From contig OX597823.1 of the NCBI GenBank assembly GCA_951406725.2, forward strand, positions 109,430,001 through 109,494,000: DNA of 64,000 nt, read 5' to 3'. The notes below the pieces were generated by a model, which saw nothing but the letters and a program-made list of their open reading frames with translations, was not told the DNA's origin and ran no database searches. Position 1 is the stretch's first letter; each line of letters begins with the position of its first letter. Source of the stretch: Octopus vulgaris. Taxonomy: Eukaryota. A program made the translations under genes and the position numbers. Shown in pieces: positions 26,649 to 51,885 of this stretch.

Positions 26649-26710
26649 TCTGAGCTGATGAAGGAAAAGTGGCGTTTTACCCACAAATCCAGAAACAGAC
26701 TGTCCTCGGG
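26649..26710 (+). ncRNA. Type I hammerhead ribozyme, predicted cleavage after C26704 (GUC)
   Basis: Stem I TCTGAG/CTCGGG; core CTGATGA; stem II GGA..GTGG..CCAC..TCC; GAAA; stem III ACAG-A-CTGT. Confidence 0.8.
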
Positions 26711-27210
26711 TATCGTATATGGATGTGATCTTTCATTGTTTTTCCCTTATTCCTATGTGAGTTATTTTTCTGAGTATACATTGTCTGGAGACTTTTATTT
26801 GCAGTTGAAGAAATAGCCAAGTTTTTGGCTGCTATTTCGGAAAAGTTCGGTGTGTGGTAAAGTGAATTCTTTACTTTACCATATTTTTATAAATTAATAC
26901 TTCAAATATACCGTAAATGGTCTTTACATACCGAATACTGCTTGGTCGAATTTATTAATAATTAATTGATTCGACCCCCATTTTCTCATAACAATATAAT
27001 GCTTTCTCTCCAAGAATTTAAACTGCAGTTTTTACCTCTGTAGAAATGGAATGCTCTATGACTCACGTGGGCGGACAGGGAGAATAATAGATCTCATTCG
27101 TATTTTTGGATTCGCTAGTACTGGATGTCTGGCATAGTTTGTCCGATGTTACAGATATCGGACAGGTATGTTTGATTCTTAGTATTTTCAAATCTAAATC
27201 AAAAGAAATC

Positions 27211-27272
27211 TCTGAGCTGATGAAGGAAAAGTGGCGTTTTACCCACAAATCCAGAAACAGACTGTCCTCGGG
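27211..27272 (+). ncRNA. Type I hammerhead ribozyme, predicted cleavage after C27266 (GUC)
   Basis: Identical to 26649-26710, 562 nt downstream. Confidence 0.8.
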
Positions 27273-27657
27273 TATCGTATATGGATGTGATCTTTCATTG
27301 TTTTTCCCTTATTCCTATGTGAGTTATTTTTCTGAGTATACTGCTTGGTCGAATCTATATATATATATATATATATATATATGTGTGTGTGTGTGTGTGT
27401 ATATATATATATATATATATAGATAGATAGGTAAACACACATACACTCATATAGATATACATATATACACATGCATGTATATACATACATACATGCACAT
27501 AAATACATACATACCTACATATATATATACACACACACAGACACACAAGCACACGCACACCCACAAACATACACACGCACATATATATATATATATACAT
27601 CTGATATGAAATATGCATATACAAATGCATACATATGTATATAGATTTACACGTATT

Positions 27658-27895
27658 TATTTCTTTATTCCTTTATTGCCCACAGGGGGCTAAACATAGA
27701 GGAGACAAACAAGGACACATAAGGGGATTAAGTCGATTATATCGACCCCAGTGCGTAACTGGTACTTATTTAATCGACCCCGAAATGATGAAAGGCAAAG
27801 TCGACCTCAGCGGAATTTGAACTCAGAACGTAACGCAGACGAAATACGGCTACGCATTTCGCCCGGCGTGCTAACGTTTCTGCCAGCTCGCCGCC
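27658..27895 (-). mobile_element. SINE family B, full length with 15-bp TSD
   Basis: TSD AGATTTACACGTATT at 27643-27657 and 27897-27911. Confidence 0.92.
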
Positions 27896-28959
27896 GAGAT
27901 TTACACGTATTGCGAAGTTATTGGCGTATTGCGAAGTTATACGTTCCTCAGCATACGCATACAAATACATATTTACACACTTTCCCTTACACTAATGCAC
28001 ACCTATAAACGCACAGGTAACATTCACATAGACCTATATACAGATTCATTCGTTGCATACCAACTATATATCTAATAAGTCTCATTTTCATTCTGTAGAT
28101 CTTTTTCTCTTTTTTTCTCACCTTCTACTAGCTAGCTAATTCACACATTCTCCCTATCACTCTCTATCTCTCTCTCTCTCTATCTCTCTCTCTCTCTCTC
28201 TCTCTCTCTTATATGCGTGTATTTGTATACACGTATTATACATACACATACATAAAGGCAAATGCGTTAGCATGTATGTGTGTATATATGGATGTGTGCG
28301 CGTATCCATGTGTGTATGCATGCATAAATATGTGTGTGTGATGTGTGCGTTTCTGATGCATGTGCGAATGTATTCAAATGCACATACATACATACATACA
28401 TACATATATATATATATAAACACATACAAATATATGTGTATATATCTAAACATACATGGACACCAACATATACATATATAAATTTACACACACATACACA
28501 TACACATATATATATATATATATATATATATATATATATATATATATATATATATATATATATACGCCTATACGTATGCTTAGTAACATTTGCTCACAGC
28601 CATAACCAAATCTACATCCATATACAAACCTAAATTCACATAGGCATACACGCGAACCTCTCACTCACTTCCACGCACAAAATATTAAATATTCAGAGAT
28701 ACACATTTAATACACAAACGCATCCTATACAAAACAACACAATTTTTTGCTCCTCTCCGCATACAGACTCTCCGCAGCGCACACACTAACTTATTCAGTC
28801 TTCTACGTTACATCTCTACTTGTTGCCGATTCATTAATATTTTAAATTATCCATCTTTTTTCATCTTTATCCATCTGTAGAATGCATCAAGGAATAGACA
28901 CTTATACACTCTATATCCTTCAAAACATACAGAATTGCAGTCTCTCTCTTCCTTTCTTT

Positions 28960-29310
28960 CTTTTTCTTTCTTTCTCTTGCCCTTTCTTTCTTTCTCTCTC
29001 TTTATCTTATTCAGTATCATTCTCTCTCTTATTTAGTTCCTCTCACTTTCACCTTTTTTCACTCTCTTCCTTTCTTTCTTTTTCTTTCTTTACCTTTCTT
29101 TCTTTCTCTTTCCCTTTCTTTCTTTCTCTTTCCCTTTCTTTCTTTCTCTTGCCCTTTCTTTCTTTCTCTTGCCCTTTCTTTCTTTCTCTTGCCCTTTCTT
29201 TCTTTTTCTTTCTTTCTCTTGCCCTTCCTTTCTTTCTGTCTCTTTATCTTATTCAGTATCATTCTCCCTCTTATTTAGTTCCTCTCACTTTCACCTTTTT
29301 TCACTCTCTT
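28960..29310. repeat. Polypyrimidine 20-bp minisatellite bracketed by a ~70-bp direct repeat
   Basis: Unit GCCCTTTCTTTCTTTCTCTT; CTCTTTATCTTATTCAGTATCATTC.. at ~28998 and ~29240. Confidence 0.85.
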
Positions 29311-29504
29311 TCGCCCTCTTTCTCGCGCACACGCGCATACACGCTTGTGATGGAATGCGTGCGCAGTATTTCACGTGCTTTGGAACCTGTATGAAAATTA
29401 TTGACAAGGTCAACAAAAGAAACACAAACTAAATTCTTTAAAATATATCATTCCCAAGGTGAAATCTGAAATATTATAAAAGATAAGCATAATAGTTCTA
29501 TTAT

Positions 29505-49041: not shown

Positions 49042-49057
49042 ACAACAGGGGGCGCTA
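49042..49057 (+). promoter_or_regulatory. CTCF-like motif
   Basis: ACAACAGGGGGCGCTA resembles CCASYAGRKGGCRS, in unique AT-rich DNA. Confidence 0.3.
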
Positions 49058-50490
49058 ACTGTCGTAGCGCACTAGGTTGCTTTTCTTTCATAAATGTTTA
49101 AAACACCATACTTTATTATTTTTATTGTTGCTGTTGTTATTATTAAAATGTTTGATGGAATAGTTGATGCAGTCACGATGGTGTTTGTTTTTGTTTTTGT
49201 TGTGGTAGTTGTTGTTGCTGCTGCTGTCTGTTCTCATTTTAGCTATTGGATTTTGTGATTTTTGTTGAATTTGCCTTTCTTTCTTGAAAGAACAAATCGT
49301 GTCATTTGTTTTGTCTTTAATTTTCATTAAAAATTCGTACGTGTTGTTTCATGTGCCTTTGTTGAATCAATGTGAACCATTTCGTCTGTCGGCTTGTGTG
49401 CATACGTACACAATCAAACTCGATGACAGACATACGTACATACATATGCACATATATGGAGACAGATTGTTATGCACTCAAAAAATTAAAATAAACTCAA
49501 CATGTAAACATTTTGGCATATATACGTATGCAAGCATGTATGTATGTCTAAATATACTCATATATATATATATATATATATATATATATATATTTATATA
49601 TATGTATGTATGTATATGTATGCATATATATATATATATATATATATATATATATATATATATATATATATATATAAGCAAAACGCCCCGCCATCCAATG
49701 GACGGTGCTGAGTTGTCAAACATTTAAACCAAATTTTCTCGAGACCTCTTGTCCGACCGTCTCATAGACCTCCCCCTGAGAAACACTGATTTAACCTAAA
49801 TTTGAAACTCCAGCGAAAGAAGAAATAAAGATACACTTTTTTCTATTCGAAGTAAAATGATTTTACAAATGCACGTTCCCACGGCTTTATCGATCGCATT
49901 CTCACCGGGAATCGATTTTTTAAATTTGTTTCAAGACTTATACACGCCCTGATACCGTCGGTATCTACATATCAAATTTGAGCGCATATCAAACTTTAGC
50001 CACAACAGCGACATAATGGTATAAAGAAAATCGAACACACATATCCACAAGATATGTGTGTTGTTAGTTCTTAGGTCCGCCGCTGTTTTTAGGCGTAAGA
50101 GTTTCTTCTGTTGCATGAAACGTTGGGACAGGCGAACAAATGGTGTTTAAACCATTTAGTATATCGTTATAGTCGGTAATATGGCTTGAAGCAAGCTTGA
50201 AGCCATATCGCCGTTTGTAAGCGACATTGATAACTGATAGCAATAACGGAGCATCGATGTCTGCCGCTCCGACAAGGGACTTACGTAAGTTGTCTCGCTT
50301 GACTATGTCTTACTTTCAGGTGCTTTTTTACATCTGGTGCATAGAGAATATATTCACTTACGTCTAAAACCCGTAGCCGCCCTACTAACCAACAACACAC
50401 AAAGCTTGTGTATGTGTATTCGATTTTATTTATATACCATGAGCTGCTTCTAATTCATATTTGAATATACATACATATATATATATATAT

Positions 50491-50800
50491 AATAAAATAC
50501 AAAATAGGACAAGAACGTAAAACATCCAAACAACTAAGTGATACAAAAGAGGACAACAAAACATCCAGATAGACGATACAAAAAAAAACAAAAAAAATCA
50601 CAAAAAAAAATTCGAAGCCTTTTATCTTCACTCAAGAACCGGATCATCCTCGCAATTTCGGCTGATTAATCTTGAGATTGCTCCAATCTGGCCTGCAGCC
50701 GAAATTGTGAGGATGATCCGGTTTTTGACTGAAGATAAAAGGCTTCGGATCACCCTCCATTTTTTTTTGTATCGTCTATCTGGATTTTTTTTTTGTCCAT
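50491..50800. mobile_element. Family P1 head-to-head palindromic insertion
   Basis: 50613-50664 vs 50696-50747 inverted, extending to GATAGACGATACAAA/TTTGTATCGTCTATC. Confidence 0.8.
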
Positions 50801-50817
50801 TACATTTTTAAATAATT

Positions 50818-51614
50818 AACTGGTTAACTGTTATCGAAGTTAACTTTTTGGTTAACTGTTATCGAAGTTAACTTTTTGGTTAACGGATTAACGGTTAACG
50901 AAATTAACTTTTCGATTAACGGCGCCCATATATCGTGTGCATGTGTGTCTGTGTGTGTGTGTGTTCATAATAGCGCGAATATGCTATCTTTAAGATAGCA
51001 TGTTTTACATTGATTTGATATCATCGTATCGTATATTCTTATAGTTTATATTCATAAATATGCGTGTGTATGTGCGTGTGTGTATATGTGTGTGTATGCG
51101 TCTGTGTGTACATAAACACACACAATTCGATGCATTTTAAATACAGATGGTATTCTGTACTAAACATAATACAACGTAAATAACATTATCCTATCTACGT
51201 TTATAAATAATGAAAAATCAAGACCATCTCATTCATATTATTATTATTGCCCTTTCGATGCAAACCTAACGATAGAAGTGTATTGCTTGTTTATATATAA
51301 CATGCAGTTATATTACCAAGTATTCTTACATACAAAATAAAAGTGAAGCGGAGCAAACTGCTCTGTTGATAGTGAATAGCAATGTTTTCTTAGTATTACT
51401 TATCTTGATAAGAAAAAATATTTTAGTTTATTTGCCACTGTTAAAGCAACGATGTATTAATTCTTAGAAGATCGTTAGGATTGCATGCAGCAGTGGAAAA
51501 TGTGAAATTTAAAGCAGGTTGCTACCAAAGGTGGGCACCGTTAATCGAAATGTTAATTTCGTTAACCGTTAATCCGTTAATCAAAAAGTTAACTTCGATA
51601 ACAGTTAACCAGTT
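50818..51614. repeat. ~85-bp GTTAAC-rich inverted repeats (DNA-transposon-like termini) around ~600 bp
   Basis: 50818-50928 (with 29-bp internal tandem duplication) vs 51532-51614. Confidence 0.85.
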
Positions 51615-51720
51615 TTATATATATATATATATATATATATATATATATATATATATATATATATATATATATATATATATATATATATATAATATATATA
51701 TATATATATATACATATATA

Positions 51721-51885
51721 ACGGGAAGGTTTGCGAAAATAAACAAAAGACGAAGGCAGGTGGAGTACAAACAAATGTATTAGTATGGCGCTCAGGAATA
51801 GAAATAGAAAAATTATTTTACGTTTCGAGCCTACGCTCTTCGACAGAAAGATACACAGAAAAGAAACAGGATGAGAAAAAAATGC
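51721..51885 (-). mobile_element. (TA)n-embedded element with variant HHR-like motif (51816-51852)
   Basis: Minus strand: TTT-CTGTCGA-A-GAGC-GTAG-GCTC-GAAA-CG-TA-AAA. Confidence 0.6.

Follow-up and report, generated by a model that had tools for sequence, protein, structure and literature searches.

A 64,000-nt stretch of Octopus vulgaris DNA (assembly GCA_951406725.2, contig OX597823.1, forward-strand positions 109,430,001 to 109,494,000; hereafter the window, numbered from its first letter) carries nine motifs with the topology of type I hammerhead ribozymes, distributed over six unrelated repeat families (A–F), and a tenth motif at 62742. The stubs that bear them are very likely the 3′-terminal, pseudo-long terminal repeat (pLTR) pieces of six or seven families of Penelope-like elements (PLEs) and of their non-autonomous derivatives. 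The window is AT-rich, animal-type DNA with 180 tandem-repeat rows, many dispersed repeats and abundant SINEs of octopus-like appearance. A first-pass annotation had listed nine hammerheads in it and described them as unusually dense, unrelated in sequence and settled in microsatellites. Descriptor scans recovered all nine where it had placed them, and the tenth falls outside the range 26649..51852 to which it referred. The motifs are as follows.

26425–26486 (−): hammerhead A1, descriptor scan
26649–26710 (+): hammerhead A2, descriptor scan
27211–27272 (+): hammerhead A3, descriptor scan
29830–29875 (+): hammerhead B, minimal, descriptor scan
33324–33401 (+): hammerhead C, stem III ACATATGT
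about 42337–42397 (−): hammerhead D1, looser scored scan
42424–42484 (+): hammerhead D2, stem III ACTCGGAGT
42692–42773 (+): hammerhead E, stem III ACATATGT
51816–51849 (−): hammerhead F, minimal, core CTGTCGA, stem III ACGT
62742–62791 (+): tenth motif, U3-A8 core TTGATAA, stem III ACCTAGGT

The features of a type I hammerhead (CUGANGA, GAAA, UH, three helices and an open stem I) were compared motif by motif, and every core base was found to be kept in the three copies of A and in C and E. The other four of the nine carry a defect at one core or stem position each: a G opposite G10.1 in B, a mismatch in stem I in D1, A9 to T in D2, and A6 to T in F, whose stem I has 3 bp. In A2 the core is CTGATGA, stem II has an A.A at its foot, stem III is ACAGACTGT and C17 falls at 26704; the tenth motif has a T.T at the foot of stem II and a stem I of 8 bp and lies 221 nt before a (TA)n tract. 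The stems III are short palindromes, as first proposed, except that in standard numbering the stem III of B is ACGT with U17; the AACGTT given for it also covers the cleavage base and A14. When the six elements were compared pairwise by BLAST, a single match was returned, a 12-nt word shared by C and E at GAAA/stem III, so the sequence contexts are indeed unrelated. The hammerheads of A, C, D, E and the motif at 62742 are of the Hydra-clade type, and those of B and F are of the minimal ACGT kind.

The frequency of the motifs was compared with that in dinucleotide-shuffled sequence. The perfect CTGANGA core gave five matches in the window and none in 90 of 90 shuffles. When one core mismatch was permitted, seven matches were obtained against shuffle means of 0.03–0.17 (maximum 2), and a looser scored scan, which picked up all nine motifs and the tenth, gave nine matches at a score of at least 20 against a shuffle mean of 0.15 (maximum 1; 20 shuffles). 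The notion that a window so rich in repeats yields such motifs by chance can appeal to three facts: the descriptors are post hoc, having been tuned once the motifs had been seen; Rfam at its gathering score returned 0 matches in the window; and F scored only 16, a level at which shuffles reach a mean of 0.55 and a maximum of 2. Given the shuffle counts and the closeness of the motifs to published architecture, however, this notion is already refuted for A–E, and we give it practically no credence as a whole. A strict descriptor, with no extra bases at the foot of stem II, recovered E alone, which shows that the other motifs require the insertions published for that position. The grouping of the motifs inside 25 kb is marginal (P 0.04–0.08).

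The association with (TA)n, also put forward in the first-pass annotation, is real. Five of the six insertions lie at most 200 nt from a (TA)≥6 tract (background 0.33, P 0.017), the exception being B, as had been recognized, and four of the six stand inside gaps of at most 300 nt between (TA)≥6 tracts (background 0.047, P 7e-5). These thresholds are post hoc, D and E have one tract in common, and C, E and F were delimited by means of their TA tracts. Among control repeat copies, TA was present at both ends in 0/18 and at one end in 5/18. Because TA stands 3′ of every family except B, the flanks might have been made by the elements themselves, as tails expanded after insertion, instead of being pre-existing targets. 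We regard this as improbable, since TA is also found 5′, at variable truncation points (a contig from a second organism, for instance, has a copy of A that starts at 27024 behind TA), and since Hydra, Naiad and Neptune elements are taken in the literature to target (TA)n (PMC8557442). A (TA)n preference is recorded for 26 of the 27 Hydra families tabulated in that source, including Hydra-1_Obim of Octopus bimaculoides, and this trait of the Hydra clade is displayed by all the insertions here but B.

Apart from family A, which is described below, the insertions are built as follows.

29500..29575 (+): tRNA-like head ahead of segment B, with an A-box-like word at 29509 and a B-box-like word at 29547
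29575..29774: (AAT)n/(AAG)n tract from the head to hammerhead B, tandem-repeat scan
29775..29935 (+): family B segment with minimal hammerhead, stem III ACGT
33166..33440 (+): family C stub, flanked on both sides by (TA)n, with its hammerhead 43 nt before the TA
42302..42591: family D head-to-head pair D1(−)/D2(+) between (TA)n tracts, dispersed-repeat comparison
42634..42824 (+): family E stub between (TA)n tracts, descriptor scan
51721..51890 (−): family F stub between (TA)n tracts, descriptor scan

PLE insertions are described as partial tandems, inverted 5′-truncated copies and one-sided tails. Marks of this kind are present in A, as a tandem plus an inversion, and in D, as an inversion plus a one-sided extension: the arms of D are 91% identical over 103 nt, and 66 extra nt stand on the right arm alone. 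C, E and F are plain stubs of 170–275 bp without sign of tandem structure, and their cut sites lie 43–107 nt ahead of the downstream TA. With the ribozyme about 40–290 nt from the 3′ end, most truncated copies would retain it.

Hydra-clade PLEs have type I hammerheads near the 3′ end, with extra bases after A9, often also before GAA, and a near-palindromic stem III of 8–10 nt (Craig et al., 2021; PMC8557442, Files S1, S2 and S7). The stem III of D, ACTCGGAGT, is identical to that of Hydra-2_aMil and Penelope-16_HM in the supplement of that paper, and the ACAG-ac-CTGT found among Hydra-clade stems is close to family A. By contrast, the families of the window are absent from the Hydra table, and helix II is longer in A, C and E (30–53 nt). 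The Hydra clade is also characterized by the open reading frame (ORF) motifs RWK, DKT and CxCX5C and by the lack of CCHH; no ORF is attached to the copies here. Thousands of heterogeneous PLE hammerheads have been reported per genome, most of them standing alone or as pairs on opposite strands (Cervera and de la Pena, 2014; PMC4209133), and octopus does not appear in the passages of that work consulted. The minimal hammerheads (min-HHRs) of metazoan PLE pLTRs described in that work belong, as here, to many unrelated families with pairs 100–700 bp apart, and they share with the present motifs a palindromic 15.2–16.2, an unpaired base 5′ of stem II, a U3-A8 variant and dimer dependence, which is predicted here. 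B and F fit them best; family A differs in having A.A where the min-HHR has a conserved G10.1-C11.1 beside the core. The several microsatellite-targeting, ribozyme-bearing retroelement families postulated in the first-pass annotation therefore correspond to PLEs as published (PMC4209133; PMC8557442), and the feature consists of new examples of a published PLE signature, to which several undescribed hammerhead-bearing repeat families are added.

Family A is the least-described item of the window and a candidate non-LTR retrozyme or non-autonomous PLE. Its parts are given below.

26188..26239: (TA)26 tract, left flank of insertion A, tandem-repeat scan
26240..26634 (−): inverted arm, head-to-head, bearing A1, 99–100% identical to the direct arm
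26634..27195 (+): 562-bp unit bearing A2, non-coding, GC 35%
27196..27355 (+): second tandem unit, partial, bearing A3, which starts anew after the first unit
27356..27429: (TA)n/(TG)n tract, right flank of insertion A, tandem-repeat scan

The partial second unit jumps to sequence like that of 26936–26951 and then terminates in (TA)n. Judged by the identity of its arms, family A is young in this copy. The longest ORF with a Met start in the unit has 52 codons, and the unit is strongly self-paired (folding z −6.27, with 0/100 shuffles equally stable). A diverged relative of its 3′ part (76%, BLAST) lies at 21385–21605(+), with (TA)n at the homologous end; it has retained no hammerhead.

Part of the A unit was present in 20 of the 24 sequencing runs listed, from nine studies and under three organism labels; none of the runs listed with family A is recorded as RNA. 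Four of the runs were examined in detail, at the level of contigs. The joint 27195 to 26634, a step back of 562, was found in three of these four, at a depth of 8,528 in a DNA run, and a single 504-nt contig spans 26810 to 27195 and then continues across the joint to 26750, which is nearly the whole cycle. Together, the joint and this contig show that the sequence 3′ of the ribozyme returns after 562 bp without an ORF, beyond the locus in the window as well. Contigs reveal neither expression nor circularity, as circles and tandem DNA look alike in them, and one of the runs with the joint is a DNA run. No dominant exit to other sequence was seen among the loose ends listed for two DNA runs (12 of 24; 120 in all), and no sites at which many molecules begin or end in the unit were reported at contig level. 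The ribozyme was matched exactly by a 77-nt contig at a depth of 13,542, rare variants had depths of 16–100, and no variant at 8% or more was listed between 26634 and 26750, the ribozyme region. This invariance across contigs indicates that the A.A at the foot of stem II is the norm of the family and not decay. The depths suggest hundreds of copies, although depth does not equal copy number.

In these respects family A shows the layout of non-LTR retrozymes, that is, a non-coding head-to-tail unit with one type I hammerhead in many copies, the second unit in the window being partial. Low GC, a single type I hammerhead, self-pairing and multiple copies are likewise given for non-LTR retrozymes by Cervera and de la Pena (2020; PMC7229834). 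At 562 bp the unit exceeds the 170–400 nt of that work and falls within the 51–972 bp of the preprint by Li, Clavereau and Pollet (2026; 10.64898/2026.07.22.740005). Head-to-tail repetition is shared as well, A in the window being only a partial tandem with an inverted arm; its short non-coding unit may form circular RNA. It could be argued from the ORF-less, cyclic and self-paired nature of A that all families are non-coding ribozyme RNAs, circles of the retrozyme or viroid-like kind, which multiply as circular RNA, borrow an unrelated reverse transcriptase (RT) and have no autonomous PLE with the same ends. In line with this, no PLE ORF was attached to any copy in a Pfam scan that took in 148 of the 229 complex stop-to-stop ORFs (those omitted lying in obvious short interspersed nuclear element (SINE) and microsatellite stretches). 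We nevertheless hold this alternative to be a poor one. Head-to-head inversions, one-sided tails and TA targeting are marks of PLE integration; the stem architecture agrees with that of coding Hydra PLEs (PMC8557442); tandem structure is unseen in the single stubs of C, E and F; and animal retrozymes are themselves derived from PLE pLTRs according to the preprint of Li, Clavereau and Pollet.

Segment B, which may form one element with the tRNA-like head, occurs once in the window. The head has the box-like words, and ARAGORN called no tRNA gene there or elsewhere in the 64-kb window; a search of metagenome contigs for the family B motif gave 0 matches. Together, head and segment would resemble the Schistosoma Sm-alpha/Sj-alpha elements, which join a SINE-like RNA polymerase III (Pol III) head to a type I hammerhead (PMC6765202). 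It is unlike them in its minimal PLE-type ribozyme, in the 200 nt of trinucleotide repeat between head and ribozyme and in being single-copy.

Folding predictions were then set against the behavior of PLE hammerheads, in which stem III is unstable in the monomer and stable in the homodimer. The predicted pairing probability of stem III in monomers was at most 0.05. The predicted double hammerhead came within 1 kcal/mol of the cofold minimum for A (−31.9 and −32.5 kcal/mol), C (−38.2 and −39.1) and E (−40.6 and −41.2), and for the tenth motif the predicted homodimer fold was itself the cofold minimum; these dimer energies leave out core and tertiary contacts. The PLE-type behavior was thus predicted for A, C, E and 62742, and not for B, D2 and F. 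In a tandem A2–A3 transcript the shared stem III had a predicted probability of about 0.2. In a read-through transcript, A and D were predicted to fold back on their own inverted arms with a stem I probability of 0, a context that holds five of the nine motifs. In its local context, the core of E (42685–42702) was predicted to be paired (unpaired probability 0.02), and by eye, pairing between the 5′ arm of E and the beginning of stem II would give a hairpin that may act as an off state.

The first-pass annotation had further suggested that the stem III word common to C and E might allow cross-family dimers. In such dimers the stems I are exchanged between the strands, the 5′ arm of either copy pairing with the 3′ arm of its partner, and for C and E this gives 0 bp in both directions; the shared ACATATGT therefore cannot give an active cross-family ribozyme, and the suggestion fails. 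F with E was the sole cross pair with a stem I of at least 3 bp, and their stems III are incompatible. These results bear on the idea that some of the ribozymes work within host pre-mRNA or have been recruited to regulate a host gene, possibly by way of such dimers. The core is complete in five motifs (A ×3, C and E), and the ACATATGT words of C and E, on the same strand and 9.4 kb apart, can pair at −7.0 kcal/mol. Against this, besides the missing C–E stem I, A and D are predicted to be sequestered by fold-back, solo C and E are without a cognate partner in the window, and no host gene or exon was found among the ORFs scanned. Moreover, published PLE hammerheads did not cleave as monomers and cleaved at a low level as dimers (PMC4209133), and one of nine Xenopus retrozyme dimers was cleaved (10.64898/2026.07.22.740005). 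Cleavage of host pre-mRNA in this region is unlikely, because stem III is predicted to be improbable in monomers, A and D are predicted to fold back and published PLE hammerheads cleave weakly; the wider idea of host activity or co-option is, in our judgment, very improbable. Being solo, folded back or mutated, most copies in the window are probably inert.

Several observations weigh against the assignment of the stubs to PLEs. At E≤10, no hammerhead was among the 150 of 194 Rfam matches listed. B is not flanked by TA. None of the ORFs scanned joins an RT or GIY-YIG domain to a hammerhead, as one would expect of short 3′ stubs. By eye, the published hammerhead of Hydra-1_Obim is not among the ten motifs, so that the family and clade assignment is drawn from RNA architecture and anatomy and not from sequence homology or RT phylogeny. 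The predicted dimer folds of B, D2 and F lie 5–14 kcal/mol above the minimum, and in a tandem A2–A3 transcript without the inverted arm the cis double hammerhead lies 6 kcal/mol above it.

From the motifs, their anatomy, the TA association, the multi-copy cyclic structure of A and the predicted energetics, we infer for each family a PLE parent, cleavage, circles and a mobilising enzyme, along the following lines. A tandem transcript would carry the same hammerhead twice; the palindromic stems III of the two copies would pair and their stems I swap, and the resulting double hammerhead would excise a unit-length RNA. A PLE reverse transcriptase/GIY-YIG protein would nick (TA)n DNA and copy the RNA from near its 3′ end, and aborted or inverted copying would leave stubs of 170–290 bp and head-to-head pairs. 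A preference for AT-rich cleavage sites and internal initiation have been reported for a PLE protein (Frangieh et al., 2024). Family A would represent an ORF-less 562-bp unit cycling back on itself. A bolder and rather doubtful extension is that the animal harbours a guild of non-coding ribozyme RNAs living on TA-targeting Penelope enzymes, with A as an active 562-nt circle that tolerates A.A, and B driven by Pol III and moved by Penelope and not by a long interspersed nuclear element.

As for the rest of the window, the sole Pfam match above cut-off was RVT_1 at 55136–56050(−), and a decayed GIY-YIG-like remnant was the one weak match that did not appear spurious.

19074–19352 (−): decayed GIY-YIG-like remnant, Pfam E 0.0073 (below cut-off), ESM Atlas 0.94 to eukaryotic GIY-YIG clusters

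The presence of this remnant in the window is in keeping with the PLE reading; no hammerhead was found beside it. A non-LTR retrotransposon remnant with an RT domain lies at 54520–56800(−), and its 3′ end recurs at 41925–42263(+) with 94% identity; both terminate in (TA)n, the second in a tract that it has in common with insertion D. Another TA-flanked repeat group comprises 1385–1560(+), 50480–50810 (head-to-head), 63030–63232(−) and 38960–39190(+). In it CCGAAAT is invariant and CTGA-GA near-invariant, in reversed order and without a hammerhead fold; the consensus structure of the four copies has 18 pairs, five of them with two-sided changes, and the group may represent a separate conserved RNA motif that belongs to a PLE-like family. 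Further long inverted repeats, at 39189–39663 (a near-perfect palindrome between (TA)n tracts), 669–1147, 45907–46726 and 50849–51611, bear no hammerhead. A repeat of about 560 bp occurs in tandem and inverted copies inside (AAT)n at 6851–8027 and 19401–19820, where no hammerhead was found.

A literature search on octopus and cephalopod hammerheads or retrozymes, with Repbase and Dfam outside its range, yielded no paper on these families, and neither did a search on tRNA-SINEs with PLE hammerheads; the word 'ribozyme' is absent from the main text of the O. vulgaris repeat paper. For the giant squid genome, a published count gives only 235 hammerheads. With Rfam detecting 0 of the 10 motifs here, annotation based on it misses hammerheads of this kind. 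Were the window typical, its seven insertions in 64 kb, all missed by Rfam, would scale to about 10^5 hammerheads in the genome, a density far above that of the catalogues consulted. The parts that merit further work are the tRNA-headed segment B and the 562-bp unit of family A. Being young in this copy and having an invariant ribozyme, family A lends itself in practice to two questions raised in the literature, namely cleavage by PLE hammerheads in vivo and the mobilisation of animal retrozymes by PLE proteins.

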